Below are positions 27,114 to 52,641 of a stretch of 64,000 nucleotides of DNA, one piece after another. Numbering within the stretch: position 1 is the stretch's first letter; every line of letters starts with the position of its first letter. The notes under the pieces were generated by a model that was not told where the DNA came from, made no database searches, and was given only the letters and a program-made list of their open reading frames with translations. Both the position numbers and the translations under genes were made by a program. The DNA is from Lingula anatina (Eukaryota; Animalia; Brachiopoda): the NCBI GenBank assembly GCA_051362555.1, contig JBPQGU010000016.1, positions 5,766,001 through 5,830,000 of the forward strand, written 5' to 3'.

Positions 27114-30100
27114 GGGGACAGATAGGGTTAACTACGCTTAAAATCATGTTTTTGAGTTTTTTGTGTGTTTCTATTAATCAAAAAAGTATCTAACGTTGGC
27201 TGTAATAATTATTTTGAATTTGCACCGCAAAATGTGTCTTTTGATGAGTTTTTCAACCGGCACGCGCCCCAGTCAGGCTGACAACTAAGCCACGCCTCTG
27301 TTGCTAAGGGCCGTTGCCATGAGGGGGGCGGAGCATAGGTAATGAGTTATAAGCCGATTACGTGTGCGGTAATAGGTCATAAGTCTTACATCAGCTAAGC
27401 AGTGAAGAAGTCGAGTACGCTATGGGGAAGAGAAAAGTTCGTGTTAAAAAGCCATTTCCAGAGGAAAGAAAGAAAATTTTGAAAGAGAGTATGCGCGGCG
27501 GTTGGGGAAAACCGGTATTTGCTGAGTCGGATGACGAGAGAGAGAATCTACCTGGAGCGAGCGCTCGTAAGATACTGAAGGACTTAGAACAGCCCTCGGA
27601 GTCTTCAGACAGTGCTCGCGAGGAAGAAACCGTAGCTACTGGGACCTTTAAAAAAACATTTGAACTTCATTAGGCCTATACAGCTTGTTTATTGGGAAGT
27701 CCAACGACACAGTAAATCAGTCTTTTGATTTTTTGTAATGCATATGGAAATAAAATTGGGATTTCTGAGCAAAATGTTATCTAGATTTCAGTAGAAAAAG
27801 GCTTCATGTTACATAAAAGAGAATAACCTCATGTTAATCTTCATACCTGGTTTAAATCGCACACTATAAGCACTTAGTCATTGTTGCAGGAGTAGATAGA
27901 CCTAATGTTAAAAAAATGGTAGCCAAAGACAAAGGCATCAAGATTCCCATGTTATGATAATGTCTACTCATAAGAAGGATGACATCGTTCTTTCTTCCTT
28001 TTTTTTACACTTCTGGTCTTATCTAGCCCAGAAAAATTTAACACCCCCAGGGAACTTGTTTTATGTAGCCTAAATAGTGGCCTACTTTAGTTGCAGCTTG
28101 AACTTGGCATTCAAATCTTGATCTGGTTGACAGTCAAGTTTCATTGTTGCTTCCTGTTATCAGAGTCTAGCCAAAACTGCTAAATGTTCCATATGGCAGA
28201 ACTGATCTTATCACATTTCTCAATTACGCAAGGTTGGACAAAGCACTACTACAACGATTAATTAACAGTGTCATCACTGGTTTGACAGTTTGAAAGTCAA
28301 CAAGTTTTATATTGTATCTTTGTACGTTAATCCAGCCAATAGTAGGAAAAGAAATTTTAATGGAAAACACAGCAGTGACAAATTAAAATTATTTTTGAAA
28401 GCACATTTATTGCATTACTTGAGACACCTGCTTTGACCACGACAGGTGAGCACTGCTACCCAACCCCCTTTTATAGCTTATCAAATCTTTCAAATTGAGA
28501 CCTCTAAAAGCAATATGAATATAATGTTTTTCTTTGTTTAGATTATGATTTTATTATACAATAATTCTGACAGTATTTTAATTAACTAGTATGTATTAAT
28601 CATAGTAGGCAGTAGGAAAAATTGCTCTAAAAATAGTACACCACCATCGTTGATAAAGTCGCCACTAGAAAATCCCTTTGGTGGCCATTTCCCTGAGCTA
28701 AATGCATAAGTGAATATCAACAAACAGTTGTCACACGCATTTGTTCACAGCTATACTCGATACAGCCGATAAAATATGCCTATATCAACATGTATCTGAT
28801 GCAAACTGATATTGCAGCCCGTCGGAGGAGTGTTGGTATTATCGCTGATTAAATTACCTTAAGGTTTAGAAATCCTCCTGAGGCCCATGGACTGACGCTA
28901 AAAACCCAAGTGAATATGACCAAGTGGTCGTCACAAGAAATTGTCCTTTGGTCTGTTTGATATGAACGATCAAAGTTCGCCAATTTAACATTGAGAGTAA
29001 TGGGCTAGTCCTAAAATCGAGCCTCATTCTGGGTTAGATAATCCCGTAACCGACTGTAAGAATAGGTGCTCAGCAACATGATGTTCATAGGACAGCTTGG
29101 CAGAATTCCTCCATGGAAACCGCATACCCAGTCTAAAAGAAGCGAAAAAAGACCATAGCTGTTGTAAAAATTACATAATCATCCTAGTAGGCATACAGAA
29201 AGAGAAAAAAGGTTTTTTGATAAAAGTTATATAGTTTGTATATGTAGCTCCCAAAAATTTTTTGCATCATTATACTTAATCTGTATACTTGGAGTAAATA
29301 AAGAACTATCCCAGGAAAGCCTATTAGATAGAAAAATACAATGCCAACATATTTTACTTTAAACCCTGTTTGTAATTGGATAAAGGTTTGTACACTTGCA
29401 ATAAGAAATTTTACCTTATCTTACCTGTCTAATCTCAGCTTTCACCTGGTTGGGTATGATTGCCCTGATAAAAGAAAGCACATCTGCTGGGAAGCTGTAA
29501 TGGCATCCGTCCGGCCCAATGTCTTGCTTCTGTATAAAAAAAATTACAAAAAATGAATGTTATAACCAAGTGATAGAAACTGGATAAAGTCAACTTCTAA
29601 TAAAAATCTTATTTAACCTTTTAAAAGTCAGACTCTGTAAAGAAATAGCCCTGCACTATTACAAAATACTTTAACCAACACATTTTACACGTTTGTAATA
29701 AAAAGTGAAAAACAACATTTTTGTCCTAATGTTTTGCAAAGGAACTCATACTGAAGATTGCTATATTAAAAATAACGTGTTTTTTTTACCTTCAATGCCC
29801 TTGCCCAAGAGCTGTAGTGCATGAAACGAATTTTAATGTGTTTTTCCTTTCATTTTTGCGGCTGTGACTGTATGATCTAATCCTTTTGCGAACTCTTTCC
29901 CATCAAACCTAAAAATAAAAGGAAGGTATGATAAATACGACGCACGTGGTACCTCAACACATCAGACTTATTCATAAGATAACTTCATTCAGTGCCCTGT
30001 GTGATCTAGTATTAGACGCAATCCACGGTAAAATGCCGACGCAACTTTTACATGCTTCAAAAGATTTGAATAGATACTTTTTTACAATCAACACGTTCGT

Positions 30101-31285
30101 GGTTTCAAAACTCACCTACACTCAGCCATTTCACTCAAAAGCCTTCTCTCAGCCACTTTTATCGCTGGTTCTTGTGCAGCTGAGCGTCTCCCCTTTATCT
30201 TAGCTGGCATTTTGAGAAATACTGCTATGAGATAATCGCTGGATTTTTCCGTTGATCTGACGATTACCAAGTGTCGTGCAAAATAATCCTGCAGCGTTAC
30301 CCGTCAAAAAAACTCGTGTTAACACAAGTGACGGACACTTGCTCTCGACACAGTTTTATCTGATCACTTTGCCGATAACAAAGAAGGAATCTCTCAGGTA
30401 AAATTACTCGATTGCCGAGGAAGAGCCATTGAAACGATCAAATGCAACTTCACACCTCTTAATTGCGGTTAAACGTAATCGCCTTTGTTAGCGCTTCCTT
30501 CTACTTATCCTTGACACCCTACGGGGCATCACTAGGCTAGGACCCTCTCCAGAGCTGTCAATCAAAGTGGCGGCACGCTTACATGCCTAACGAGTGGTCG
30601 GAAAATGTAACAAAAGCACGATTTTCTGCCCCTTCAAAGCACCCAAACAAAATATTTTTAGATGACAATAAGCAATGGTTCCATCTGATCGTATAACCGA
30701 TAACAGGTAAATTTGCCAGCTAAGCATTTTGACTAATAAGCCCTGTTAACCAACCTGTGAACGTTTTTGGCTGTTTTAACAGCTTTCTATATTGACGAGA
30801 TAAGTGAATTGCTGCCGAGTATATCTCACTATCTGAGCAACCGATCGTTACAAAAGTTGCACCTATTGTTGTTAGGAATGTGGACTACAGCATGATATCA
30901 GGGGTTTAAGAGGAAATTGTTTGTTTGAAAGTTATCGCCTTTTAAAGTGAATAACCCATTGAAATATGGGCTGATTTAACGTAAAAGATGATAAAATCAA
31001 AAGTAAATAGTTAAAGACAATTCCCTGGTACCGCGCTGTAGTGCTTTCACCCAGCTTTATGAGGCCTTTTGAATCACTTGAATAGCTGTCTTGGTTATAG
31101 AGAAAATCCCAATACCGAAAACGGCATTTTTCCCCTCAAATTGGCGCCAGAGCGTCATCCGTTGGACACTGTACTTAATCCCCGTCTTTAATTGGCCTTT
31201 TGGGAAGTTTGTTTTAATTTTTTATTAAAACTTACAAGCCAAGGGCTTTGTTTCTATGACTTTGGTCCTTTTACTATAAGTCCCC
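27114..31285. mobile_element. Decayed TTAA-targeting DNA transposon (Kolobok-like), possibly nested copies
   Basis: TTAA|GGGGACAGATAG at the left and CTATAAGTCCCC|TTAA at the right (10/12 inverted match). CpG-rich relative to its flanks. Basic N-terminal ORF 27422-27673 (MGKRK...SARKI), and a converging minus-strand decayed frame (MPRRVSRISRRKR... CKSC) near 30530-30000. Confidence 0.45.
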
Positions 31286-32557
31286 TTAACCTGGCACTGA
31301 GATTTATATGTAGATGTGGTACATATTCACTATCACTGGAACAGTTTGACCCATACCAGTCCTGTTTGATACATGTAAATGCCAATTATTTTATCTTTTT
31401 ACTTGATATTCATTGGGAGGTTTTAATTGATGAAAATGCTAGTCATGTTTGGAAAATCAGCATGACTGGATTATTTTTCAAATGGCTTATCATACTTCTT
31501 GTGGTATTTTTCACATAGCTCTGTTGTTACTTATAACCATTCCAGAATTTTTTCCTTTAAAAGTGATGAATCATGCTAACTAACCTGTTATTTTGGTAAA
31601 CATCTGTAAGAAAACAATTTCTTGTTCTCCCTGTTTTACATCAAGCACCAGGAATTGCTCTGAGAACATTGACGGAGAATGTCCGTTTGAAAATAACAAC
31701 CCTCATGTGACTTCACTTCAGGATACAATAACACGTGGACTGGATAATATACATTGGACCATTTGAAAATTATGGGGCAAACACACAGAAGATTTGTACT
31801 TTAAATGGGGCCACAATCCTGGTTTTAATTTATTAAGCCAAACATCTGGTTTTAAGAGTAAACGCTTAGTTAACTTGTGCCCTGGAGGTCCTTCCTCATA
31901 GTTTGGACTGTGGAGAAATTGAGAACAAATCTTATTTAAAAAATATCAAAGAGTCTCTATAAATTTGATTTAGTTAAAGTTCAAAATTATTAAATCATAA
32001 ATACAAGCTTGTAAATATGGGTGAAGTTGAATTTCTCATAATTTTCATTTTCAGGAAAATCATTTTTATTTAGTAGACTCAAATGTAGCAGTATTCCCAA
32101 CAGTTTTTCATTGTGAAATCGGCTCTTAGTTATACTAGTAGAAAATGTTGCATTGAAATTTATCATTTTTTATATTTGATAATATGTATTTTTTTTCAGT
32201 TTTCATCCAAGTAAACAAGTTAATATTGCCTGGCAGTGAGAACAGGCTGTATCAGGTACCTCTGTTACAGCTATATGTACATGTAGCAGGGTTGTTGTTG
32301 TTGTTGTTGTGTGTGTGTGTATTTGTTTACAGTGAATATCTGCAGTTATATTTCTACCCCAACACATTGGAATGTAATATTGTTTGTATGAGATACTGAA
32401 GTCAGTGGTAGTGTCCAGAGCTGTAAGCACCTCTGTATCTGGGACCATCAGCCATTTCTAGCAACTGTGAAACTCGGTATTGTGACAAGCACCAGCCATG
32501 GAAGATTTTTTATTTTTGTCATTTAATAACTTTCTGTTACAACTCTTTATCTTCTAG

Positions 32558-32806
32558 CCTGCCTCAGTTGCTGGGTTAGGTTTTGTAGAAATCCTGTCTG
32601 TCACGCCTACTGCTGTCTCCCCTACTGCTGTCTCCCTGTCAGAGCTCAAAGAACTGCGTCCATGGCAGGTTGCTTTGAAGTCTGGGGGAAACCTTAGGGT
32701 TCTTGATTCCTGTCATCTTCACATGAATACAGTCCCTGCGGCAGACGACCAGGATGTCATTATTAAGAATATGGAGAAGTGCAAACTGGACTTTACACAT
32801 TGGAAG
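32558..32806 (+). CDS. Coding exon: Notch-ligand-like N-terminal (C2/MNNL-like) region, not in ORF track
   Basis: 83 stop-free codons: PASVAGLGFVEILSVTPTAVSPTAVSLSELKELRPWQVALKSGGNLRVLDSCHLHMNTVPAADDQDVIIKNMEKCKLDFTHWK. GFVEI resembles Delta SGxFEL and LDFTHW resembles Delta FxFxW. The phase-0 donor AAG|GTATAA joins the DSL exon in frame. Confidence 0.6.
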
Positions 32807-35139
32807 GTATAATCTTCATGAGTTCTGCTACATGTGGATGATTTATTGTCGTTCCTCACTCTATAACATATACTTCAAACATATTTATCTTAATTAGCCA
32901 AAAGTTATGATAATTATTGGATAATTATGAAAAATATGTTTATCATTATTATCCAAAAATTGTTCTATGATTTGCTTACATTATAATGATAACTGAAGAC
33001 CTTAAAAATATTTTTAAAAGTTTTAAAAATAAGCTGGGGTGAAGACAGAGTGTAAATGTTTGTGTGTGATCCATGCATGTTGAAGAAAAGGTAGAATGTG
33101 GGAACAAGGTATACTGTTGTCTTTTTTTATAATTTGTGAGGGACTGCTGTGGTACATGTAAGTGGTATTTACAATAAGAACATCAATTTAGTTGTAATCT
33201 ACCCCAATTACAGCCTCTTTTCATGCTATTATTAGAGCAGTTTGCAAGTTCTATCATATGGGCTAGTTCATGTTGTAAAAAAATCTGTTCTTTTTTCTTG
33301 GATTGAACTCAAAGGAGGATTTTTAGTAAACCATGGTGCAACCATTTCACCAACTGTACAAAATTTTGGTTAATTTAAAGTAAACATGAAAACACATTAA
33401 AGCTACCTGAACTGGAAGACAGGTGTGTTGATCTAAAGGCAGCAAACAGTTGTCAAATAAAATAACTTTTAACCTCTTAACAGATACAGGAGCAAAAATT
33501 AAGTAAAATAACATTTCTGGCATTTACCTGTACATCTTCTGTTGAACGTGGAGCAAGTGGTTTCTTATGAATACTCGGCAATGTTTGTAGACCAAGAAAC
33601 GCAGACTAAGATATTTGTAGTTAGGAGTCATATTTATATTTATGCACCCCACCTTCCAAATTGTATTTGCTCAGTCTTAAGAGGGTTTGACCATTGGATA
33701 TTATTATTATTATAAAGATTAGCATTGGGTTTCCTCTGTATAACATATGACTGTTGCACCCAGTAGAATATGAATGATGACAAAGCTTCATGTTACATAG
33801 TAAAAGTTCATGCCCAGAAGTGGTCAAGAATTAATGGACATTGATCTGCATTCAAGATGAATTAAAAATGAGGATATGTTTACTTACTTCAGTAAGACAA
33901 AAAACATTGCCCCCCCCCCCCCCTTCCCACACACCCCAGTCACACACCTGTTTATTGTCCTATATCCTGGATATTAGAGTGTAGGTTTTTATAAAACAAC
34001 TAAATATATTACTACCTGGCCTGGGGGTATTGCAGAAAAACATTTTCTTTACACAGTGACTTCATTTTACACAGGTAAAACAATCATGAATTGCACAGTG
34101 GTAAAAGCAATATTTTGTATAATAATAATAATACAAAATTTAAGACCCTTTCACAGCAGTATGCTGTTATGGTAAAATCTGTACCAAACACTTTGAGAAG
34201 TCCTGGCTAACCTATTATTTCTTATTACACTAGCTGTTGTACAATGTATTACTCCTTTTGACAAGTTCCTCGCAAGCTTCATCCCTGCTGTTTAGTTGAT
34301 TAACTGAGGTGACTCTTTTTATGTAATAGGCAGGCTAATGAGCGGCTCTCAAAGTATACCAGTACAGGCTTTTTTTTTTTTTTTTTTTGGCGGGGGGGGG
34401 AGGGGGGGGAGGCATCCGACATACCAGTGGACTGACATATTAAGATTCTGTTCTTTATATACATGTAACTACATTAGTTTGAGTATGCTCAGCCTTACAG
34501 ATACAAGTTTTAAGCTTTATAAGTCAGCATGTGGAATTGATTTTGTTAGAATGTGACACTTTGTTTCCTTGGTAATATAATTCCATCTTTAATACTAAAT
34601 CATATCCTGGCTTGTTTATTTAATTCTTGGTAGGTATCAAATGAAACTGAAACTGAAATAAGACAAATTGGTTTATTGTTTGAAGTACTGGGTACCATTT
34701 GAAGATGCCAGCTCAGTTAGCAAGTACTAAATAATGTCAAATTTTTGCTTCTAAACTTAACATATACTGGAGTTACAAACGGCATAACTTAACGAAATAT
34801 TACATTGAACAAGTATTTTCTAACTTCTTCACTGCATGGTGCAGTTTAAAACTTTTTATTTCTGTTGCCCGAGAGATTAATTTTGGTTGTTTTTTGGCTT
34901 GCAGATTTTATTTGCACGGTGTAAAAAATGGGTACCAGTAAATTATATTCGTTACAGGACATATTTAATACCTTCATCACATCGCTATCTTTAAGGAAAG
35001 CTCCTCTTACATCATATCTATATAAAGAACATTTTTCAGATTGCAGTCTTTTTCTTGGCAATTAATTGGTATTTTAATATAAAATAAAAAATAATGAGTT
35101 ATTTCAAAATTTTAGTTTAACTATTTTTTTTTATTTCAG

Positions 35140-35431
35140 GAACCTCTTTATTTGGCATTTTCATCAGAAACTGATCCTGTAGCATACAACATGACACTGC
35201 CACGTCTCCTGGGGTCCTCCACACATATGGTGTGCTCTTCTAAACACTCTCCCTCTGTCCAGGTGTGTCTACGTGTCCACCTGGCAGTGCAGTGTGGAAC
35301 ATATTACTATGGGGACAACTGTGATGTTTACTGTCGCATACAAGAAAGAGAAGAACGTTACACTTGCGACCCAAGGACGGGGTTGAAGAAGTGTGCAAAT
35401 GGCTACAGAGGATACGGCTGCATGATCAAAG
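35140..35431 (+). CDS. Coding exon encoding a DSL (Delta/Serrate/LAG-2) domain
   Basis: Strong acceptor TTTTTTATTTCAG (phase 0). Translation ...VQCGTYYYGDNCDVYCRIQEREERYTCDPRTGLKKCANGYRGYGCMIK has the six DSL cysteines with C..YYYG..C..YC and YTCD..G.K.C..G..G..C spacing. Donor AAAG|GTTGGT, phase 1. Confidence 0.85.
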
Positions 35432-37924
35432 GTTGGTGTAAAATTTTAATGCTGTGCAGGACGGCTTCTGAGGGATAAAAGTAAAATGCTTTGAACTAAG
35501 AACATCTAATGATGTTTATTTCTTTCCTGCAAGTTTTTGTTTTCAGGGAGACGATGGCAGCCAGTTAATGCATTTTATTGATGGGCTTCTCTTTTTTTAC
35601 CTCAAAAGCAAAGAAGTGTCTATAAGTACTTAACTTTAAGGAGCATTCTATCTGTTTTTTGTCCAGATTCCTCCATCAAAAGGATCCTGATAACAAAGTA
35701 ATCTGGGAAAATCAGTGACAGTTGATAAAATATTGGTAATGTGTACATTTTTGAAATATTCTTTTTTTGTTGAATTGTTTCAGACATTAGCATAAATCAC
35801 CATACTGGGGCCAGGTTATTCCAGGCTGGGGACCATGAAACAATGTGTCCTTGGGTTCCAAGTTCTAGTCAAGGTTAATATTCTTAAAGGTCCACCAGTC
35901 TCACCTGATCCCTTACTTCAATACCATACATTTTTTCAGGACACTTTTCATTAAACAGTTGAGGTCAGTGGTAGACACCATGTAAAAAACAGACTTCTTA
36001 CATTATAAAGATTGCTGGAGGCATCTTCAGTGGGATATTTGAGTATTTAAAGTAAATTTCAGATATATTCTAGGGACCACATCAATTTTTTTGTATATTG
36101 TCCCATATACTCAAATACTCAAAATCAAAATAACCCACTGTACTTGTAAGTGTATATATCTGCTTGTTCACTTTAAATTTGAAAGTTTTGGGTATTTATT
36201 GCTCCTTCAAAACATGTACACCAATTCACCATGTAACTTTGGCCTGTTTGTTTGAAAGAAAACCATGCTGCAACATGCATTCCTTGTGATATCCATGCAG
36301 TTGTCTAATTCCTAGCTCAGACTTGATAGACGACATTTGACTTGACTCAGCAGCAGCTCTGCTAATTGTGTGAACAAAATTTAATTTGGGATCTGCCGTG
36401 GAATATGTAATCTGTGTTAAATAACCCCCCCCCCGTCAAAGGTTATAGCACCCTTCAAGGGCAGTATATATTCATTGTCAGTTGTTTTTGCAAATCAAGA
36501 GATTCAGTCAGCTTGTATTCACACTGCATGCTGTCTAAGGACAACTTATGTACATTCATGAGTGGATTTTGCTTTTATTTAAATTAAGCCCTTATTTGGA
36601 ACTGGTTGTACATATTAATAACTAATAAATCAATGAAAATTTCTAGTCTTAACACTAGCTGAAATTTGCAGTCATGACCCATAGTATTAAGTGGGCCTTG
36701 TCTGGCTTCTGTGACTTTCTCAAAACCCGTAGTGATTACATTACCTCTATTCTACATAGTTGAAAATTCATTAAAGACATCACTGTCAAAAACAATATAT
36801 ACAGGGGTAGGATGATTGATATTTGGGCAGTTAAAGTTGTTTTTAATTTTGCCAAACTCTGATGAGACTTCATGGCTCCACCTTAACTAATTGACTAGGT
36901 GTAATCAAAATAGCCATCTAAATGATTGATCAACTTAGTTGTTAACTGCCATGGCCAGGAAGTTATTGTAATCAGTTATGGATAAATGAATTCTTCAAAA
37001 ATTACAGGACATGGTCTTATTGGGGTAAGTTTCTGATAGTTTATCAAAATTTTAGCTAATGAATTTCCTTACTTGTATGTGGATGTAGGGGGGGGGGATA
37101 TGGTATAATAAATAATAATGCATATTGGGGAGACACAGTGCCAAAACTGTTATTTATGGCCCCAGTGGATCCAAACTTTTGATATCATTGTGGAATTTTA
37201 TTATTTTATTTATTATTTTTTAGGGGGGCAGTCACAATGTTGTAAAAAAGTTTTGCATCCCTGGTTTTGTTCTGCATGGTTTTTCTTTTAAATGAAAAAT
37301 ATGCGATATGAATGTTAATGATTGATAATTGAATGTCAGACATGCTCCCGTCATGAGATCTCCATATAAATAGAATATTGTTGGGAATTGGCTTTTATGT
37401 ATGTATATGCATTCAGCCTAGAAATCTGAGAATAACCTAGGATTGCAAAGGTAGCCAGGCCCCTCATGTCCAGTTGTGAAGGTCAGTATCAACTTGACCT
37501 TTTAAATTATCCTGCTGTGGTATACAAAGTTGATTGCACATGTACTTTTACTGATATATTATGTAATTGGCAGAGTTTCTGTTCTTTTCATAGAATGTAA
37601 ACTATAACCATTTTTTGTCTATTTTGTATAGTTCAACATCAAAAAGCATCTGATCTGTATTTTAGTTGTACCCATCTGTCAGATCAAAACGCTACTGATG
37701 GATGATGGGGGGGGGGGGGGGGGGGGGGGAGGGGAGGGGGGGGGCATGGGGGTTTGCCCTACTAGAGTACCTCCAAGCTTCTCATTTAAAGGAAAAAACA
37801 TGCAGAACAAAACCAGGGCTACAATACAATTTTACAACATTGTGATTACTCAAGAAAAAAAAAACCAATAGTCTACATTATGTGGAATAAACACATGAAT
37901 GATTATATGACTGTGCACAGCCGT

Positions 37925-38660
37925 ACAAGAACATTGAACAATAATGAATTAAAGAACACAGGAAATTAAGTTGTAGATCAATTGAGGAGAAATGTGACAA
38001 GATGTTTTTACTGCTTTTACCCTGTATGTGCTACCCAGAGCTTTCTACAGCTCACTCCAGATACTGTGACACATCGAGATTGGTGTGACATTTAAAAAAA
38101 ATCTTTTTGATATATTTAATTTTGTCAGTTTCATGCATTTAGCTATTTCAAACAGGGCTGGTTGAGGATAAATTATTCAACCTAAAAAACTTTTTATTTT
38201 GCAGAAATCTAAAAATTGTAAAAACAATTAAGTATCAATATTTAACATTAGTATTAAAATATTATTGCTGGCATTGTGTGCACATGTCATGTAAACTACA
38301 CACTGCATGAAGGAAGTACAATTTGATGGGAGTTATAGTTTCCAACTTTGGTGATAAGTTTGTCCTGGCAGTTTAATCTCTGTGTAAGATCACTGGATGA
38401 CCAAAGTCAAATTGTGGATATAAAAGCTTTAATATATCAATGTTTTTCAGCATTTGATAGTGATACCACCTTAGGGCTTTCTAGTGTTTGGGATAAATAT
38501 ACAAATATTAGTGACAGATCTGGGCAGAGACACAGAAACCAGCAAAATAGCAACAGATGTAGAAAACATTGAACAATATGAATAAAGAACAATGAAATTA
38601 AGTTGGAGATCAATTGAGGAAAAATGTGACAAGATGTTTTTACTGCTTTTACCCTGTATA
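37925..38660. repeat. Dispersed ~100-bp direct repeat (37925-38030 and 38565-38660)
   Basis: AACATTGAACAATA..GAA..AAAGAAC...GAAATTAAGTTG.AGATCAATTGAGGA.AAATGTGACAAGATGTTTTTACTGCTTTTACCCTGTAT occurs twice. Confidence 0.85.
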
Positions 38661-41370
38661 TGTAACAAGTGAATCTTCAACTACTTCAGCTGTCACGTTT
38701 AGAGATTCCACAATTAAATGAAATGTGCATTTAAAGTGGATTTTAGTTGACATCAAAGAGAAACTTGCTGGTTAAAATTATCAATTCATAAGAACTTGCT
38801 TGTACATGTAGTACAATAAATAAATATTAAACAGATATATCAACAAAAGTGGCAAATGGGCTTACCTTCTCCTTGGTGATTTAACTACTCTTTAAGGTCA
38901 ATACTTTGTCCAGAAATAAAAATTCTGAGAGCTCACTGTTTACTGAAATAAAGTTGCCCTATTGCACAATTTCATATCTGCCCTGGCATCAAATTATAAT
39001 AAAATTGAATCAAATTTGTTCAAGTATACTTGCCTCTATTGATTGATTCCTCTGTATACTTTCATGCTAAGACTAGCTCTCAAGGAAAAAGGACAGGTGT
39101 GAAATTTCACATCTCTTCCTCAGGTGCGTGAGTCTGACTGCTGGTTTCTGTAGAGAAGTTCTGGTAATTTGGCCTGCCCTCTGCAGAGAGAGAGATAAGT
39201 GCTACCAATGATAATGTAATCAGTAATGCTCTTTTCTGCTATGTTGTTTTCAGTGGTAATCTGTCAGCAATGAATATCTTATTATAAATCTGTCGGTCCC
39301 CAGCGGAGTTCTTGATTAGTTTGCTGATTAGAACTCACATGAGAACACTGCCAGAATACAATAGACATAAGACATCAAGGTGTGAGATATCAGTTAACAA
39401 AACATTTATTGATTCAAACTATTATTACTGAATAATTAATACATACAATCACGAATTCAATACCAATTATGAGGAACAAAAGTGGTTGAGATTGGCCTAG
39501 GGCTCATTCACATCCGATCCAACTCCGCAGCCAGACCCTCACTGGATCATACAATCAGGTTAACAGACTAAGACGCTGCCTCCTGGTATTGAGTAGAATA
39601 TAGAAAATCTGGTGATAATACCAGTATGTTGGAAACAACAGGGGGAGTACTTACCTGTTAAACTTATTGCATTCAGCAAGAGTCCTCACAGAGTTGGATT
39701 GATCTGCATAGAGTGATACTTTCATTGGAAATGAGCCCTAATTGTGCTGCTTGGATTTAGAGGGCCTTTGTATAACTGTCGGGACATAGCTTAGAATATC
39801 AATATTCTGAGAGCTTTTGTTCCATTAAAATTCAACTTCAACAACAAATGGATATCAAATTTTTATCAATATTGTTTTCCAGATTCCCAACACATATACA
39901 AGTTGTCTTTTTTTTTTTTTTTTTTTGCTGTTGATTGACTCTGTTTATGGCATTATGTGTTTCATTATCCAGTCAAGCATACAGTACCTGATATGATCTA
40001 CTATTACATGGGAAGCCTTTAAGTATGTAATGTTATATACTTATCAAATTTTCAGTATGCTGAATCATTAGGCTAGGCAAAAATACAGGAGGTTCTTCCA
40101 GAACTGAAGTCAGCTTTTTATTTTGTTTCGGATGCATTTGTTACAGAGTGCATTCCATGTGGTTGATATTAAGACCAGTTAAATCCACACCTGTGGTGAC
40201 TGAATGGAAGTAATTTTTCTCCAAGCATTTCATTTTTTATCCACAACTAAATGTTACGTTATTTTTGGATGTACGAGAAGTAATCACATTTATTTCACCT
40301 CTAGAAATCACATTAAGGAAAAAAAGAGGCAAATTGTTTATTTTGCCATTTCTTAATTGTACTAGTGGCTTGTTTTGCCTTCAGTGTGGTATTTCAGTCT
40401 TCTTTGGAGCTCAGTTTCAACTCGGCAGGTTCTTGCCATTATATCCTATATCCATCTAGGTAAATGGCAGAGCTCTGGGGGCACATTGCCCGGAGTTAAA
40501 TACAGAACAGTGAGGCAGTTTGGTACAATTGTTCTATCAGAAATGTTATAGTGGCCCCAGTGTGGATATGATATTGTGATGAATGTCTGTTTTGAGGTCT
40601 GACTTGATGTAAATGTTTACCATTAATTCACCATAGTGAAGTTAGAGGTGAGTGGATGCTAAGAACCCCCTATTTATCATGGGTAGGAATATCATTTTAT
40701 GATTACAGTTCTCCCGACACCAAACAATAAAAGTAAGAAAATGGGAAGATTTAATTAGCAGAAGTGTGTTTACAATGAAAATAATTCTTGGATGCAGGGA
40801 TATGCATTTATCTAATATATGATTTAACTAGTATATATAGGAGGTATAATTTGCTTAATATCTTTATGGAAATGTTTTTAAGATAGTTGTCAATTTCTGG
40901 TAAAGCAATATCTATATTCTGGTCGGTAAACTTGCTATTTCATGATTTTATTAGGTGTGGGTGTTACAGTGTAACTGGTTCTTGAACAGTACATATGTTA
41001 ATTTTAGCTAAATATTGGGCCCATCATACTCATTTAGAATTTCCATCTTAATTGTCAGAATTTAGTACTTTGAAGGGAATATGCTTGGTCTATCAACAGA
41101 CACAATATTATTAGTGGAATTCTCAACTAAGCATCCAGCAGTGACTGCAGTTGCCTATATATAAGGTAGAACCAGGATTCCAGGCTCAGTATTTTCTAGC
41201 CATTCATTCACACCATACTTAATTCCCAGCACTACTTGATAGCTCTGGTCTGTTTATGTGTTGATATTCTGATTTATTTTTATTGCTTTGGTAGTGCAGT
41301 GTATGCTCCTGATATACTAATTCCTATCTTGATTTAAAAACTAGGTTCACATACCTAGATCGATCTAATA

Positions 41371-41560
41371 GGATCGATCCATCTCCGAAGGGTTTCTAGC
41401 TAAACTGCTTTCAGCTGAAACAGCTTAGATGTCTGGCACGCCTTCTGAAGCTGCTAAATGATAATTAATTACCCCTAGTAGCTTCAGTCGGCTTGACAGA
41501 CATCTAAACCCCTTAAGTTGATTGCAATTTAGCAAGAATCCCCTTGGAGATAGATTGATC
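41371..41560. mobile_element. Palindromic foldback MITE-like element
   Basis: Left arm GGATCGATCCATCTCCGAAGGGTTTCTAGCTAAACTGC versus reverse complement of the right arm GGATCAATCTATCTCCAAGGGGATTCTTGCTAAATTGC. The imperfect palindrome continues to a centre near 41465. Confidence 0.7.
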
Positions 41561-42658
41561 CACAGTTAGTATGATGGCGTCTGGGAATGGTCTCTATAAG
41601 CGTAATTGCTGGGTTGTGCAATAATTTAAGCCTTCAGGTTTTTTATGTAACTGTACTCTGGTATACCCTGTATGAGGCTGTATCATATATGTTATATAGT
41701 TACAAAGATATGCATAACCTTTGCATACTTCAGTATACCCACCATGCAGTCTCTGTTCGTTAGATGTAAAATGGATAACTAAATTATACACAGAAACCTA
41801 CAGGGAAAAGAGGTTATTTGGCTTTAATCTTAAAACTTCTTTGATCACAAACATGATCAGTTCTAAGGAATCACTGCAATGTACAAGTGGAAATATCACA
41901 TTATTCCAAGAATGAATCTTCTCGCATGCACGGCGTATGTTTAGTGATATGGCCCTCAGAATTTTGTTTTATATTTTAGTCAGGGAGTTTGATAATGTTA
42001 ATATATTTGTAGATAGTTCTGCCATTAATGCAAGTAAAATTGGGGCCTTAATAATTAGATTTGATGAATGTTTGTTTTATGTATCCATTAATGTTTTAGG
42101 GTTATTGACTTTGGCACAGATTTGTAATTATTAAGTTTTGCGAATGTGTAAAAGGAATGATAGCCACAGTAGATTGTTAATGCTTCCAAATATACCCACA
42201 GTATTGTGTTAAGTTGTGAAAATAGACTTGTAAAAATAGATAAATCCATATTTAATACTTACATTAATGCAAAAGTAGTAGAAAGTTGCAAATGATCTGA
42301 AGCACTCTAAGAGAACAAAGAAGTGTACTAATTAAAGTTGGCTCTTTTCTAGAAAAGACAAGCTGTGCAGATGAGTTTTTTCATTTCGTCCAATTACTAA
42401 ATCATGTAGCAGCGCTTTGACAATTGTTTTGATTTCAGTTGACCAGCATGAGTTGACTTGCAAATAAGATCCAATACTAATGCTCCAAGCTTGCTTTTTA
42501 TGTACAGACACTGTGAGTGGATTCAGAACAGAGGACTAACTGATCTGCGGATCAAATATGGTGGTCTACCCACTAAAATGCTTTCCAATTAGACACTGAA
42601 TAGATTCCCCATGGGGATAATTCAACAAGCATTCAAGTGGATTGGCCATATTTGATCC

Positions 42659-42796
42659 GGGCCATATTTGATCAAATGTTCACTATAGAACCTTCGGACC
42701 AATGAACCCTTGATTAAAAAATCGATAAAAATGTTACCACTTTTCGGACCAATGAACCTTCGGACCAATGAACCTTCGGACTATCGAGACGCCCCC
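42659..42796. mobile_element. Short MITE with GGACCAATGAACC sub-repeats, 8-bp TSD
   Basis: Flanked by TTTGATCC (42651-58 and 42797-804). Same family as 55194-55352. Confidence 0.7.
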
Positions 42797-44264
42797 TTTG
42801 ATCCATGGATTCGTTAGGCTGCTGTACATTCTGAATACACTTTGTATGTCTGGACATATAGCCACCACCTGTCTGTGTACGCCATTAGCATCAGTGTGCA
42901 CTTGTCTCACTTTTTTTAAACATGTTTATTAGTTTATGAGAATTATAATTAGTGTTCCTCACTTAATCATAAAAAGGCAAATTGCATTTTTATCTGCATG
43001 GTTAGTTGATTTAGTTGAAAATGCACCACAGATTTCTTTTAACTCTATTGTATAGTAAACAAATAGTTTTTGATATACCTGTAGTTAATACACCCAATTA
43101 TGTATGATTTCTTATTAGCCAAAGAGTTAAGACCCTCTTAAATTTTGAGCACTTGAAATGGCATTTTGTAATTAATTTAATAAATAATAACTTATTTAAA
43201 GTGTAACAGTCTGCATATTCTCACTTGCACCATATATAGTGATGTCTGATGGTCCTCCCTCTATAGAGGAAATGAAGACAAAATGATAAACCGTAGGGCA
43301 GCCAGAGTTTTTATAACTCTGTTGTACATTATGACATCATATCAGCATGGCACATTACACACGTTAACAGCAAGTATAATTTGAGAAATGAGAAAGTAAG
43401 TGGAAAATGGCATATCAACATGTGTACCATTAGATTTGTTGCAATTATATGGTGATTTTGTGGTAGACGGGGTATGATGAAAAACCACTTCTTGACTTCA
43501 TATTTAACTTGGTTCAAACTCATTTAAAGTTGATTTATATAAATATCATATGAAGAAATTGACATTGACGTGATTTATCTTGACATCTTGTACTTGAGGT
43601 GAGTGTGTGTGGCGGGGGTGGGGGTGGGGGTGGTGGGGGTCTAGGGGGTGTAGGATGAAATTATAACGTTACCATTTCTAGTAACCTGAGGATATGTACA
43701 GCTAGGGTACCTCCTATAAAATTGGTTACTATTAGTACATGTATTACTATTAGTACATATATACATCTGTAATTTTCTTGTCTCTTTCTTAATCACAGTA
43801 AAAATCAAGTGATTAAGTTTGTTTAATAAGGATATTTGGGGGCCTTGGACTCACTGATCCACAGATCAAATATGGCCGACCCACTTGAAAGCTTGCTGCC
43901 AAAACCCCACATAGAATCCATTAGGGGAAAACAAGGAATCAGTTATTCCTTGGATCAACTTCTTTCTGAACAGGCCCTTAGATAATTTCTTAGGCATGGG
44001 ATTCTTATTGCAGACAGTCGCTGTCAAGAGTTCTGGCAAATATCCAGTACAGAAATACCTTTTTATGACCCATGAAACCCACATAGTCACTGATAACAAG
44101 AATATTGAAATGTGCAAAAATGGACCAGTTGAAGAGAAACCATGCAACTATTCATTTTGGCCAGAAAATGGATTTTCCTGGGGTAAGGGACAATTTTCCC
44201 ATCCTTACCAATGGATAATGAATCCATTATGACATTCAAAGTTAGTCCTTGGTTTTTTCTTAAA

Positions 44265-44295
<31 letters not shown>

Positions 44296-44854
44296 GTAAT
44301 ATTCCCTTAAGAAATTATTACAGAGTGTATACCCATCTATGGAGGTTACGTGATGTGATGGCAAGCACAAATTCCAGAATCATTGCATTAACCACTGTTT
44401 TGGTAGTAAAATAGAATTAATTATTATATTTCTGTAAGTTGTTTACAATGTATTTATTGTGCACTATGGATATCATAGAAACAGTTGTTATCCCTTTAAT
44501 TGTAATTGAAGCTGTGAAGCCCTGAGATCAGATGTTGTAGCTGAGATGTTACTCTTGCATGACCATAGTCACCTTGGATGTTGCTGATCCCTTCTAGCTG
44601 TTTGCAAAACTCAATTATGAAAATCTTTCCAGTTGTGTTCCAGGACTTTAAAGGACCTTTGGATACTGAATGTGTTCATGTATGATCAGTATATGATTGA
44701 AGATTGATTGTGCTTCTTTTTATTTTTTACGTTCTTTTACTTAATGTGGTAACTGTTTTTAGTAGTTGCAAAAACAATAGTTCTGGAAATAGACACATTT
44801 TCTGTCATCCACATTTATCTGAAGACAACCTCCCATTTGTTTTTCAATTGCAAG

Positions 44855-45030
44855 TATTCCTAGCTGACAAAACTGCCCACAGTTTCCTGACATATGGAGG
44901 GCGACGACGTCATAAACGAGCCAATAGCTTTTTTGAAGAGTTCAAAGAAGGCAATTTTGAGAGAGAATGTGTCGAGGAGACGTGTAGCTGGGATGAAGCC
45001 ATGGAGATCTATGAGAATTATGAGAGGGCT
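44855..45030 (+). CDS. Gla cassette exon A: gamma-carboxylase propeptide + furin site + Gla domain
   Basis: Acceptor TTTTCAATTGCAAG (phase 1) and donor GCT|GTGAGT (phase 0). Translation (V)[21 protein letters not shown]|[37 protein letters not shown] shows F/A/L propeptide spacing, an RxKR site and the ERECxEExC Gla loop. Confidence 0.93.
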
Positions 45031-46064
45031 GTGAGTTAAATGGCATGACATATATGCAACCATAAATATAGCATTTACTGTATGTATTATATGCAAAATG
45101 TATGCTGTTGTTTGCTACCTCAATCTGCATGTTTTACATATTATGTGCAATGTTTTTCTACATTAAACATATATACAGTATATGCATGTTAATATATATA
45201 CTGGTATATTCCATTTGTGCCCAGGTGTGAAATACTTATAATATGACATTATATATATTTTATGCCTGTATGGAATGTTTGCCTATAGCTATTTACCCTG
45301 CATGTTTTGGATATGTGCATTCTTATTTCAAGCTCTATAATCTCTATATATATGTGAACTGACCCATATCAGGTGCCAGACAACTATAGCTAGCTGTCAC
45401 TGTAATTATATACTCCTGCCTTGGTATACCCATGTTACTGACAGGTGGCATGTGTGTTTTTAATTTTTTTAATATGTTTTCTCTTCTAAGTTTCCTTTTT
45501 CTTTTACTTTCTGTTAGCAGAACAGGTGTGTTACACCCCCTTATCAGAGGACTGTATTCTTGGTGTCTTTATGTTTTTCTTTTTTCTGAAAATGTGTTTT
45601 GGGAAAGCATTTTATAGATTTTTTGTTGCCAAAACTCATTATTTACTTATGAATGACATCCCGTAATTGCTTGAAGTTAATGCCACACAGTTGTTGTTTT
45701 AACCAACAAAAGTAAAAATGAAAATGTCAGACAGCTACAGTAAATGATGCACAGTGGTTATGAGGCAAATACAGAAGGTAGCTTGAAACAGACTATTTCA
45801 CCTGGCACTGCAGGTAATTCCCACTGTGTAACAGACTCAGAACAGGTGTCTTGTTAGAATTCAGTTGTTGTTGTTTAAACAGATTGTTCAGGTGAAGGTG
45901 TGCATGCACTTATATAACCTGCATGGTCGGCTAAGTACATCAGTAAGCTTGAAAAACTTTTGTAAAACTGTGAAATATATTTGTTTTACAAGGCACTGAA
46001 CAGGCAATTTTCAGCATTTTTCAAGTGGACTCAGTCATTACATATTAAGTAACAAAATCAATTT

Positions 46065-46083
46065 GTGTATGTGTGTGTGTGTG

Positions 46084-46118
<35 letters not shown>
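46065..46118. repeat. (GT)n(GA)n microsatellite just upstream of exon B acceptor
   Basis: Seen directly; it ends about 35 nt before the AG at 46151-52. Confidence 0.9.
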
Positions 46119-46152
46119 TGTATTTTAGCATATCACATATTATGCTTTCCAG

Positions 46153-46331
46153 TATTTCTAGACCAGCATGATGCTAGAACTTTCCTGCATGCACATGCGC
46201 GTTCTAAGCGTGCGAACACGGGCTGGCTGGGTACGGAGGAGGTGCTGGCAGGGAACCTGGAGCGCGAGTGCGTAGAGGAAGTGTGTTCTTGGGAGGAAGC
46301 AAATGAAGTCTTTGAGAATGGAGAGAGAACC
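46153..46331 (+). CDS. Gla cassette exon B: second propeptide + furin site + Gla domain (not in ORF track)
   Basis: Acceptor TATGCTTTCCAG (phase 1) and donor ACC|GTAAGG (phase 0). Manual translation: (V)FLDQHDARTFLHAHARSKR|ANTGWLGTEEVLAGNLERECVEEVCSWEEANEVFENGERT, 59 full codons without a stop. Confidence 0.93.
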
Positions 46332-46830
46332 GTAAGGAGAAGCAGAATTGAGCAAGATGTCCTGATGCAGCTTATTGCATTTATTAAATTACTATTACTA
46401 TGTTATTTTTAATTCATATTATTTTTCAAATTAATGGACTTTGGCCCTTTTTAAAAAAAAATGAACAGAATATGCACTTTAAAGTGTTTAGATGAAGATA
46501 TAAATGTTTTTCCTTCTTTGCTTGCTAGTTTTATTGAACCATTTAACCAATAACCTATGAATTAAACCACTTGTAGGGACCCATGAGTACAATTCTATAC
46601 CTTCTGTGTGTATTTATATATGATTAATGAACTCCAAACATGACATGTTTAAAACATTATGGCTATATACTAGTAATGAATCTCAAAATCTGATATATCT
46701 TGGTACTAAAATTAACCCCCAGTGACTTATCTTTTACCCTATAACTATTTGTACATGTACCAGCTTTTATGTTCATATCCTGTCACTGTTTCACAATTGG
46801 TGTGATAATTACCATAAATATCTATTTCAG

Positions 46831-46855
46831 AGAGAGTACTGGGTAAGGAGAAATG
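46831..46855 (+). CDS. 25-nt aromatic-stack exon (REYWVRRN-D)
   Basis: TCTATTTCAG|AGA GAG TAC TGG GTA AGG AGA AAT G|GTATGT, phase 0 to 1. It links either Gla exon to EGF1 in frame, and its xE(Y/F)W motif matches factor IX exon 3 (TEFWKQYV-D). Confidence 0.88.
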
Positions 46856-47034
46856 GTATGTAATTTGTTTTAAATTATTCTTTAAATTATTGGAAATATA
46901 TTTTTATATGTAATGGAAAAATATAATTTAATTTGGCAATTGTTTGACATTTGACTTTGTTCCATGTTGTGACATATATACATTACAAAATCAGCTGTGA
47001 TAATTTTTTTAAGATTGGTCCATTTTTATGCCAG

Positions 47035-47154
47035 ATCCTAACCAGTGTGATTCCAACCCGTGTGTCTCAGAGGGGACCAGCAGATGTGAAGATTTATTCC
47101 AGAACTATAGATGTCACTGCAGGCAAGGATACACTGGAAGCAATTGTCACATCA
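47035..47154 (+). CDS. EGF1 exon of Gla-EGF protein
   Basis: (D)PNQCDSNPCVSEGTSRCEDLFQNYRCHCRQGYTGSNCHI; AG...GTGAGT boundaries, phase 1-1, 120 nt. Confidence 0.93.
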
Positions 47155-47376
47155 GTGAGTCAGAATGTCCACAAGCAACTCATATCAGCTGTCATATAGC
47201 AGTTTCAAGACATTTATGTACTTATATATAAAATTCCACAATATGGGCCTACCCTTAAGAGTTGAGTTGTTGTTTTTGTTTTATTAGGAGGAGAGAGGGT
47301 GGGGGAGATTATGTATATACTGAGTATTGCAGGAACTCACAAACCCAATCTGAAAAACATTTTTATCTGTTCTCAG

Positions 47377-47423
47377 ATATAGATGACTGTGGGACAAATT
47401 GTCTAAATGGAGCTATATGCACT
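47377..47423 (+). CDS. EGF2 first-half exon
   Basis: TTCTCAG|(N)IDDCGTNCLNGAICT|GTAGGT; phase 1-0, joins [10 protein letters not shown]. Confidence 0.88.
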
Positions 47424-47590
47424 GTAGGTATACAACTGTATAATATCTTTATTAATCATAGATTTTGACAACCCATTTAAAAACCTTATTTATGAAATTG
47501 CTTTGTTTATTGTATATGCTGCAAATTAAAAGATTGTGTTTAATATTGTCATTAATGGCATACAACTTTATGTATGTCTGTATATTAAAA

Positions 47591-47643
<53 letters not shown>

Positions 47644-47689
47644 TGACTTTAAAAATGAAAAGAATTCTGCTCACAATCTTACTCTCCAG

Positions 47690-47849
47690 GACCTGATCAA
47701 TGACTATCACTGCACCTGTGCCCCAGGATTCCGCGGCACTAACTGTGAAATTAACATTAACGAGTGCCAGAGCAACCCTTGTCAAAATGGCGGCACGTGT
47801 CAAGACGGAGCAAACCGTTGGAGCTGCCAGTGTGCTCCAGGATGGACAG
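47690..47849 (+). CDS. EGF2 second half + EGF3 exon
   Basis: CTCTCCAG|[53 protein letters not shown](G)|GTTAGT; phase 0-1. Confidence 0.93.
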
Positions 47850-48507
47850 GTTAGTGGTCGTTTTGAATTAGCTTTAATTTCAGACTGCTGCTGTTATTGT
47901 TTCAAATTGTTTCTAATATAGATTACATTAACCAAAAAGTGAGGGTATTAACTTGAAGAACCAGTTGGAAGCACAGGAAGCAAAGCTCCAGAACGTAATT
48001 ACCCATTATAATATTTCTCAGTTCCAGTTCATACTTATAAAACAAGTATACTCTTCTATCTGACCAACAAATGAATTCACAGTAACAGTTAATGGGACAG
48101 AAGTGTGTTAGCTAGTCAAATATTTGGGTAAATCCTACCTCCCCCTTCCCAAATTGGAGGAGGGTTGGGGAGCCAGCTTGCAGCATATCCTGGCCATATA
48201 CTGGACCCTTAGAGAGGAACAAAATTTACCAAATCTTATCTAGATTTCTTAATCTTATGATACATCATCATAGATATTTTATATAACAGTGCGAAAAGTA
48301 TCATTTGAGTACCATCATACCCTGTGCTTCTGACTGTGTGCTATCTCAATTTGTTACTATGGTAGTATGGTGAAAACTTAAGAATTTTGCTGGCTTTGAA
48401 AATTTTGTTAGCAGATGATTTTTCTGCTGAAGATTTTTTTCACTTTGAAAAATTACCCAAAACTAAAAAAGAGACTTGCTTATCAGCTTTAAAATGATTT
48501 CTATTAG

Positions 48508-48675
48508 GTGTATCCTGCCAGTTTGACATCAATGAATGTATGTCAGCACCTTGTCTGAACGGTGGGACGTGTAACAATCTGCAGAACATGTTTACCTGTG
48601 ATTGTGTCCAGGGATTTGCAGGGAATGGATGTGAAATTAATGTGGATGATTGTTACCTTGATCAGTGCCTGAATG
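48508..48675 (+). CDS. EGF3 end + EGF4 + EGF5 start exon
   Basis: CTATTAG|(G)VSCQFDINECMSAPCLNGGTCNNLQNMFTCDCVQGFAGNGCEINVDDCYLDQCLN(G)|GTATGG; phase 1-1. Confidence 0.93.
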
Positions 48676-48919
48676 GTATGGGGGTGTTTTTTAAGTATTG
48701 TTTGCATTCGATATTCCTGAGGACGTTGATATTAATACATTTTTCAATCTCAAAATGTGTTATAATATTTTCCTGGATTTTTTTCTTGTTTAAACAAACC
48801 ATGAAACTTTGTTGTTATAAGCTTGGCTTTATAATTTTGCAAAAACACATTTCTTTTCAAGAAAAATATCCTTATAATAATCAGACAAATAAGGTCTTTG
48901 TCATGTCTTCTTTCCCCAG

Positions 48920-49084
48920 GTGGTTCTTGCATTGATTTAGTCAATGACTTCAGCTGTATCTGTCCCCCAGGATTCTCTGGTCCCACATGTGAAGTCAACA
49001 TTAACGAGTGTGAGAGTTCTCCCTGCCTGAACCAAGCTACCTGTATTGATGCTGACAATGGCTTCCTGTGTGAATGTTTACCAG
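48920..49084 (+). CDS. EGF5 end + EGF6 (incomplete) exon; gene probably continues beyond window
   Basis: TTTCCCCAG|(G)GSCIDLVNDFSCICPPGFSGPTCEVNINECESSPCLNQATCIDADNGFLCECLP(G)|GTAGGT. The sixth Cys of EGF6 is missing and I found no matching next exon by eye up to 64000. Confidence 0.92.
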
Positions 49085-51647: not shown

Positions 51648-52184
51648 TTAGTCACGGCTACCTAAAATGACATCAGTGGTATTGAACTCTTGATGGTACC
51701 AATAGAGCTCGTATGCACTCATAAATTCCTCCGCATCAAGGACGCCATTAGCGTTCTGATCAATTACATCAAAAATTGGTTGAATCTCAGCTGTGTTGCG
51801 AAAAACAAAAAGGAATTTGGAATACTCATCTACTGTCCACTTGCCATCACAGTCGATATCAAACGTGCCAAACATATCTGATGAGATTTCAGCGATCTCC
51901 TCTGTTGAAATAGGAATGTCTATCTCGGACTCTTGAAGAAATTCTTCCAATGTAATGTTTGTTTTATAGTTTGTGTATTTGTTTGACCACCAGACCTTAA
52001 AGGCATTGGAAAACATACCATTCACTGCCATAGCTCTCCAAGACGGCAGAACTTTTTGAGCTCGTTTTGTTGTTAAACCATCATGTTCTTCTTCAGTAAC
52101 GATGCCATCTTCATCAACGTCAATGATATCAAAGAATGCTTTGTACTTGGTAACCCAGTAGGAACTAAACTTTCGGTTGGTGTT
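51648..52184 (-). CDS. EF-hand protein copy 1, main coding exon (SCP/aequorin/calexcitin fold)
   Basis: Acceptor ATATTTTAG (phase 0); NTNRKFSSYWVTKYKAFFDIIDVDEDGIVTEEEH...TDVILGSRD*. EF loops DVDEDGIVTEEE, DIDCDGKWTVDE and DQNANGVLDAEE, with a degenerate EF2. Confidence 0.9.
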   Translation of the reverse strand, partial: NTNRKFSSYWVTKYKAFFDIIDVDEDGIVTEEEHDGLTTKRAQKVLPSWRAMAVNGMFSNAFKVWWSNKYTNYKTNITLEEFLQESEIDIPISTEEIAEISSDMFGTFDIDCDGKWTVDEYSKFLFVFRNTAEIQPIFDVIDQNANGVLDAEEFMSAYELYWYHQEFNTTDVILGSRD

Positions 52185-52641
52185 CTAAAATATGACGAAG
52201 AAATGACCCGTCTTTCATATTAGGAGGTGATCTCTGGCTAGGATTTATATATCATATTTTGCAGGTGTATTATTTGTTTTAGATATGACATTTTCTTGCA
52301 TGTATTTTGTTTGAATATTTGAAATCTATTTTTGAATTGGGTTTAAAATGGATATACAGTATGAGATGCTGTAATTGTTTTGAACAGGTGTATTATTTTT
52401 CTTAGAAATGAGATTGATTATGCCAAATAAATATTGGTTTTATGAAAAATTGGTTTTATGAAAAATATGTTGAGTTACCATCCAAGAAAAACTTATTTAG
52501 TGAGGTTAAACACGCTAAAAGGTTACAGACCAGCAGAAAATTCCACCCCAACTCCCTGTACTTAAGAAACATATACTGCCTGCCTGATAATATCTGTCTT
52601 AGCTTGTTTAACTAAACCGGTGAACACTTTTCTGGACCTAC

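Follow-up and report, generated by a model that had tools for sequence, protein, structure and literature searches.

Does a brachiopod gene join the C2-DSL head of a Notch ligand to the propeptide, Gla domain and EGF repeats of a vitamin K-dependent protein, or do two genes lie side by side? The question is raised by 64,000 nucleotides (nt) of AT-rich animal DNA (GC content about 0.35-0.38) from Lingula anatina, contig JBPQGU010000016.1, positions 5,766,001-5,830,000 of the forward strand. We call this whole stretch the window and number positions from its first letter. An earlier reading of the sequence (the original prediction) had proposed a precursor in which a C2-DSL head is followed by an internal propeptide, a furin site, one of two Gla domains and EGF repeats, linking vitamin K to Notch signalling. 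Its exons were confirmed with GT-AG boundaries, and three exons absent from it were added: a signal exon ending at 26126, an aromatic-stack exon, and, ending at 45525, a further signal exon that is a candidate only (Table 1). The domain order, propeptide and furin logic of the proposed precursor were supported by the analysis, but its link to Notch was not. As far as can be read from the DNA, the locus is real; its parts are familiar but unusually arranged, and the carboxylase propeptide lies internally.

The two Gla exons, GlaA and GlaB, carry the features that had been attributed to them. Both exceeded the cut-off of 27 bits for the Pfam Gla profile PF00594 (GlaA 48.2 bits, GlaB 52.8 bits), and each domain contains 12 Glu when the stack exon is counted. 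The propeptide residues F, A, F and L are invariant, with the right mutual spacing, across GlaA, GlaB and the nemertean protein XP_074663134.1 described below. All three propeptides have 3-8 additional residues ahead of the cut site, and the dibasic sites are RHKR in GlaA, RSKR in GlaB and RVKR in the nemertean protein. The residue of GlaA that directly follows RHKR is aligned with residue 1 of the light chain of factor X. The F, A, F/L pattern, the RxKR motif and the factor X register thus all fit a propeptide and furin site preceding a Gla domain. Human carboxylase reads propeptide residues -16, -10 and -7/-6, according to passages of PMC13187478. Of 32 core residues, 21 are identical between GlaA and GlaB. 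For 12 of the 21 the codons differ, and no similarity extends into the flanks; both domains therefore look constrained. Their N-terminal loops differ by 3 residues. A long basic linker is common to GlaA and XP_074663134.1, and the propeptide of GlaB is shorter and more ordinary. A Gla tree of 25 rows gave no resolution.

The strongest support for a single chain came from a gene model in another phylum. XP_074663134.1 (P0018) is an uncharacterized RefSeq model, LOC141915481, from the nemertean Tubulanus polymorphus. Gla, DSL and EGF all score above their Pfam cut-offs in its single 292-amino acid chain, which runs from signal peptide through C2-like N-domain, DSL, propeptide, RVKR, Gla and stack to EGF1, with the propeptide and RVKR directly behind the DSL. 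The original prediction had called for ortholog models to be checked in related species, and this one shows the expected domains together. It aligned collinearly with the window model from end to end, with 47% identity in the DSL and 53% in EGF1, and its stack segment aligned with the stack exon of the window. Among 240 fetched proteins it was the best match for the window stack and EGF1. In global alignment of the N-domains, only 1 of 2000 shuffles was as good, and 15 other C2-DSL N-domains reached z 2.8 at most. Given the identical order and the collinear alignment, the DSL-Gla chimera is probably a conserved gene. The two genes differ in that the nemertean model has one Gla domain and ends after EGF1, whereas two Gla exons and six or more EGFs are present in the window.

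In EGF1 of the window, seven residues separate the cysteines C2 and C3, and just 2 of 95 matched EGFs have this spacing, those of XP_074663134.1 and of a Gas6 protein. The recurrence of so rare a spacing suggests that Gla, stack and EGF1 travel as an old unit. In the nemertean model only two residues follow EGF1. Judged from the protein alone, this fits read-through of a phase-1 donor matching the EGF1 donor of the window, so the Tubulanus polymorphus gene may continue with more EGFs.

Searches for further members of the family covered a wide range of sequences. The DSL exon was searched against 1.84 billion representatives, and 94 matched. A DSL-Gla profile matched 310 of 1407 proteins; among the best 120 of the 310, DSL and Gla occurred together only in the seed XP_074663134.1, and the named proteins among them, seed aside, were chordate, none of them listing a DSL. 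Nor did any other of 224 fetched proteins have both domains. A search of the DSL exon against longer proteins left none of 20 candidates, and a GlaA search left one of six, a frog protein with two clotting-factor units. In a metagenome scan none of 16 Gla loci had a DSL match, and Atlas searches returned plain DSL clusters and plain Gla clusters without the combination. These homologue searches would miss any protein model longer than 2000 residues. The precomputed Pfam list of XP_074663134.1 consists of Gla alone, which may explain why the pairing was overlooked.

Several results weigh against a conserved chimera. The relative is one predicted gene model, and the sole example among the 94 DSL-exon matches that also carries a Gla domain. 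For the DSL alone it ranked only fourth of 240, and local alignment of the N-domains was not significant (98 of 1000 shuffles as good). The window's own protein was not retrieved in the homologue searches, although a receptor encoded elsewhere in the window is present in the collection. The DSL-Gla junction is inferred from genomic sequence and a relative's gene model, as are carboxylation, cleavage and membrane binding of the Gla-EGF chain from sequence. Finally, a search as far as 64000 did not reveal where the gene ends on its 3' side, and the product may be either secreted or anchored in the membrane.

What, then, argues that the DSL exon is spliced to a Gla exon? It had been claimed that the DSL exon ends in phase 1 at 35431 and that both Gla exons begin with TA, and these boundaries and phases were borne out. 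Such a match is by itself roughly a one-in-three chance event and weak evidence, and we rejected it as evidence for the junction when taken alone. The 9.4-kb intron, from 35432 to 44854, contains no convincing phase-1 signal exon: with three different thresholds, a scan gave 0, 1 and 3 matches, and the minus strand gave 1, 2 and 2. The reported lack of a CpG-rich promoter was likewise upheld: the observed/expected (o/e) ratio of CpG is 0.22-0.26 over 31.5-49.7 kb, compared with 0.93 at 20-23 kb, and the highest value for 500 nt within the intron, 0.64, falls on a repeat. As GlaA has no signal exon of its own and lies upstream of the sole internal candidate, some phase-1 exon must precede it, and among the coding exons found the DSL exon is the closest. 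Taking both single-gene readings together, we consider it likely that the DSL-to-Gla splice is used.

The same intron bears on an arrangement of two neighbour genes, in which a secreted C2-DSL-only protein would end at the exon starting at 35547, a separate signal-Gla-EGF gene would follow, and the nemertean model would be an annotation fusion. The terminal exon reads as had been stated and is usable, with AATAAA sites downstream, but its acceptor is equalled by 21 of the 534 AG sites in the intron. GlaB does have a candidate signal exon of its own, stand-alone signal-propeptide-Gla-EGF proteins occur at metagenome loci L009 and L014, DSL-only genes are reported in bivalves in passages of PMC8166818, and the junctions in the window are predicted from the genome. 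Two genes would, however, leave an intact GlaA without a first exon and without a CpG-rich promoter in the intron. They would also require that order, strand and frame compatibility be kept in two diverged genomes and that an annotation error be added to this. We therefore regard two separate genes as decidedly unlikely.

The exons of the locus are listed in Table 1. With GlaA or GlaB joined to the DSL exon, the frame is open across all EGF exons to 49084, giving 486 and 487 codons respectively. The signal peptide at the 5' end was called by a heuristic scan, not by SignalP, and is probably preceded by a non-coding first exon near the CpG-rich region at 21-22.3 kb. A second CpG-rich stretch (o/e 0.68) occupies 27001-31500, within the signal-to-C2 intron of a gene body that is otherwise depleted; it represents either inserted elements or another promoter.

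Table 1. Exons and candidate exons of the DSL-Gla-EGF locus (window coordinates)
Feature	Position	Strand	Remarks
Signal-peptide exon	26044-26126	+	ATG at 26070; ends in phase 0, in frame with next exon
Divergent C2-like domain, first part, preceded by the last residues of the signal peptide	32558-32806	+	Phase 0-0
Second part of C2-like domain and DSL	35140-35431	+	292 nt; phase 0-1
Possible short alternative terminal exon	35547-35581	+	Unproven
GlaA: propeptide, extended basic linker, RHKR, Gla domain	44855-45030	+	Phase 1-0
Candidate second signal-peptide exon	45432-45525	+	Three possible start codons (ATG at 45432, 45450 or 45474); phase 1 at its end; would be used with GlaB
GlaB: propeptide, RSKR, Gla domain with N-terminal loop 3 residues longer	46153-46331	+	Phase 1-0
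Aromatic-stack exon	46831-46855	+	25 nt; phase 0-1; sole one found
EGF1 exon	47035-47154	+	
EGF2-5 (calcium-binding type) and incomplete EGF6, four exons	47377-47423, 47690-47849, 48508-48675, 48920-49084	+	

How the two Gla exons are used is constrained by the reading frame. A direct join of GlaA to GlaB runs into a stop codon. Five mini-exon candidates that might bridge them had weak donors and no stack motif, and we rejected the use of both Gla exons in tandem. As there is a single stack exon, the GlaA and GlaB forms must both use it. Skipping the Gla exons while retaining the stack exon yields a stop codon; splicing DSL directly to EGF1, a hypothetical junction, would be in frame.

Between GlaA and GlaB, outside the interval searched for the original prediction, we found a signal-like exon that ends at 45525 with a strong donor. 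At the strictest threshold only four signal-like exons were detected in the whole window on both strands. The other three are the signal exon ending at 26126, one whose splicing to an EF-hand gene keeps the frame, and one that is unexplained. For this interval and phase, 0.012 such exons are expected by chance per 1.12 kb at that threshold. Several points count against the candidate. The strictest threshold was picked after the candidate was known, and 0.04-0.16 exons are expected by chance at looser thresholds. The donor at 26126 belonged to the donor training set. The candidate has no basic n-region, and what supplies its hydrophobic codons is a T-rich tract resembling a polypyrimidine tract, which could simply be intron.

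On balance we favour one gene with two 5' ends, producing a long C2-DSL-GlaA-EGF precursor and a short signal-GlaB-EGF form. The short form would start at the internal signal exon and use GlaB. If that exon is real, GlaA, which lies upstream of it and shares the long linker of XP_074663134.1, would belong to the chimera. The original prediction had treated GlaA and GlaB as interchangeable exons behind the DSL; the frames are indeed open from both, but the candidate signal exon of GlaB speaks against full equivalence. In the corresponding alternative, a single promoter would drive a transcript in which the DSL is spliced to either GlaA or GlaB, mutually exclusively. The two resulting chimeric precursors would have unlike membrane-binding loops, and the exon at 45525 would be read from a T-rich tract by chance. 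It would account for the equal phases, the two open frames, the stop codon on joint use and the 3-residue difference between the loops. In contrast to the promoter region upstream, the intron between GlaA and GlaB is also strongly depleted in CpG (o/e 0.07 at 45-46 kb). This alternative is nevertheless doubtful, as a phase-1 signal-like exon stands exactly before GlaB where 0.012-0.16 are expected by chance, and as GlaB has a short, ordinary propeptide whereas GlaA has the long linker of the nemertean protein.

In textbook families the Gla domain is N-terminal and the propeptide lies directly behind the signal peptide. The candidate short form of the two-ended gene would have this arrangement, and in the long form the propeptide would be internal. 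The long precursor, with the C2-DSL head spliced to GlaA, would be secreted. Gamma-glutamyl carboxylase would bind the internal propeptide and carboxylate up to 12 Glu, and furin would cut after RHKR, freeing an N-terminus in factor X register as the Gla fold needs. The cut would separate the C2-DSL fragment from a Gla-EGF chain able to bind membranes. As the cysteines of the head are even in number (10, read from the alignment), no spare disulfide is expected to tie the halves together, and they would probably separate. The Gla-EGF chain could then bind phosphatidylserine membranes or mineral in a calcium-dependent manner, bridging as Gas6 or protein S do. Factor IX that keeps its propeptide has a disrupted Gla fold and impaired binding to membranes (passages of PMC8911121), so the retention of an intact Gla domain behind the head implies cleavage. 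The C2-DSL head is most likely a large removable pro-domain that masks the Gla domain until cleavage, and not a canonical Notch activator.

To what extent is the head a Notch-ligand head? The DSL exon scored 27.9 bits with the Pfam DSL profile PF01414 (cut-off 24.2), and its matches in the PDB were Jagged, Serrate and Delta (best E 8e-4). The C2 label given to the N-domain found no support in a sequence profile. With a C2 profile built from 21 N-domains of DSL matches, the window and XP_074663134.1 scored at the level of shuffled sequences (43 and 35 of 200 shuffles as good), while six held-out members scored 50-117 bits. An AlphaFold2 model of XP_074663134.1 had a mean pLDDT (predicted local distance difference test) of 73 and a pTM (predicted template modelling score) of 0.50; its input, a 29-row alignment of DSL matches, biases the model towards C2-DSL. 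The best matches of this model were the C2-DSL structures of Jagged and Delta (Foldseek E 3e-8), and comparison with C2 domains generally gave VIA Z 8.5 for Jagged2 and 8.4 for cPLA2. A model from the single sequence failed to fold (pLDDT 33). Going by the alignment-based model, the N-domain is likely to be a shortened C2.

Delta, Serrate and Jagged (Jagged1 5uk5 and 4cc0, DLL4 5mvx, Drosophila Delta 7alk) likewise have a signal peptide, a DSL and later EGFs, and the C2 predicted for the nemertean model would extend the likeness to the N-domain. The window differs from them in having a propeptide and Gla domain between the DSL and the EGF repeats, a shorter N-domain missed by the family profile, and no transmembrane segment found up to 64000. 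No DOS-type EGF was detected on any of the four EGF stretches scanned, PF21700 and PF21795 both remaining below cut-off. The position taken to be that of Jagged1 F207 carries no aromatic residue in either the window DSL or XP_074663134.1. The mutation F207A abolishes binding of Jagged1 to Notch, as described in passages of PMC3888931. The window has six EGFs, the last incomplete, compared with nine or more, followed by a transmembrane segment and an intracellular tail, in the canonical Notch ligand as defined in PMC5356439. The proposed connection to Notch signalling was thus not substantiated.

The released C2-DSL fragment or the uncut precursor might still be a true Notch modulator, tuned by carboxylation or furin. 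This functional reading is independent of how the exons are spliced. The DSL score above the Pfam cut-off and the similarity of the nemertean model to Jagged and Delta structures speak for it. Notch-ligand C2 domains also bind phospholipid with calcium, according to passages of PMC3888931, a theme that a second lipid-binding module would fit. Set against the non-aromatic F207 position, the Gla domain that replaces the EGFs found behind the DSL in Delta and Serrate, and the failure to find a transmembrane exon up to 64000, we judge a Notch modulator unlikely. A broader version is an ancient invertebrate family of two-in-one precursors in which the carboxylase would read a propeptide buried behind the head. 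A single furin cut would release a soluble Notch modulator and a vitamin K-dependent Gla-EGF chain as equal products, and an internal promoter would yield the Gla-EGF chain by itself. This version seems quite unlikely.

Downstream of the stack exon, all four EGF stretches scanned pass the Pfam cut-off, and EGF2-6 begin with calcium-binding motifs. The EGFs contain four O-fucose and four O-glucose consensus sites. EGF6 is incomplete at 49084. No further EGF or transmembrane exon was found between 49084 and 64000, so the gene might extend beyond the window, and no protease or laminin-G exon was found within it. At 54675 on the plus strand there is an acceptor followed by a short frame starting GFSG, like the missing end of EGF6, but it contains no cysteine and is closed by a stop after ten codons; either a decayed exon or mere chance may account for it.

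Invertebrate Gla proteins without a role in clotting have reportedly been described by Kulman et al. 2006: Ci-Gla1 to 4 of Ciona intestinalis, some of which are said to resemble developmental EGF proteins, have an N-terminal Gla domain with no DSL ahead. Matrix Gla protein is a small peptide with neither folded upstream domains nor a coagulation-type Gla domain. It has sequence N-terminal to the carboxylase recognition site and is accepted by the carboxylase (passages of PMC13187478), a precedent for an internal site. Factors VII, IX and X, protein C and Gas6/protein S have the same propeptide-Gla exon, short stack exon and EGF exon, in succession in F9 (passages of PMC8911121). The likeness extends to the 12 Glu per domain, the factor X register and the EGF1 spacing of a Gas6 protein. 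Unlike in these vitamin K-dependent proteins, the long-form propeptide would be preceded by folded domains and some 200 residues of chain.

The DSL-propeptide-Gla architecture is apparently undescribed so far. No paper combining 'Gla domain', 'DSL' and 'Notch ligand' was found in a literature search, with subscription papers and InterPro outside its range. The whole word 'Gla' occurs neither in the supplements of PMC8166818 (a picture-only PDF aside) or PMC5356439 nor in the main text of PMC12166595. Passages of PMC9643190 and PMC3141003 deal with invertebrate Gla or carboxylation and hold no DSL-Gla architecture. Lophotrochozoan DSL genes are expanded and varied according to passages of PMC8166818, which name no Gla fusion, and by the definitions given in passages of PMC5356439 an additional domain makes a DSL protein 'DSL-like', a class excluded from the survey.

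Other features of the window and of the searched sequences were also recorded. Tandem copies of a multi-EF-hand gene, 89% identical, lie antisense at 51651-52700 and 55881-56414 (minus strand), just past the point where the Gla-EGF gene breaks off. In the first copy, splicing from the donor of a signal exon at 52642 keeps the frame, so that the product would be a secreted EF-hand protein; the 1 kb examined ahead of the second copy showed no signal exon. A single-frame rhodopsin-family G protein-coupled receptor (7tm_1, Srw-type) occupies 9878-10966 on the minus strand and is the receptor present in the protein collection. An inverted repeat pair of 399 nt with 87% identity is located at 57423-57821 and 60570-60968. 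Broken frames at 1-917 on the plus strand resemble a Tc1-type transposase. Metagenome loci L009:339-1547 and L014:23-1285 encode secreted proteins with signal peptide, propeptide, Gla and EGF repeats and an acidic tail, and L008:174-671 and L015:1354-1842 encode a secreted Gla domain followed by a small cysteine domain that resembles a chitin-binding module. A Gla exon at L001:3881-4081 and L002:3876-4076 groups with the ascidian Gla receptor tyrosine kinases P0181 and P0187 (in the tree, L001 only).

An internal propeptide and Gla domain behind a C2-DSL head in two diverged genomes would show that this cassette can be activated inside a polyprotein, and that a Notch-ligand head is able to serve as a pro-domain. 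It would also place the F9-type exon set of propeptide-Gla, short stack and EGF in a gene that has no part in clotting. A two-in-one Notch precursor, if true, would tie vitamin K status to Notch signalling and give the Gla-stack-EGF cassette of clotting factors a role unrelated to clotting; a real effect on Notch, so far unsupported, would raise the stakes further. The locus offers a concrete substrate for asking what role vitamin K-dependent carboxylation plays in invertebrates.

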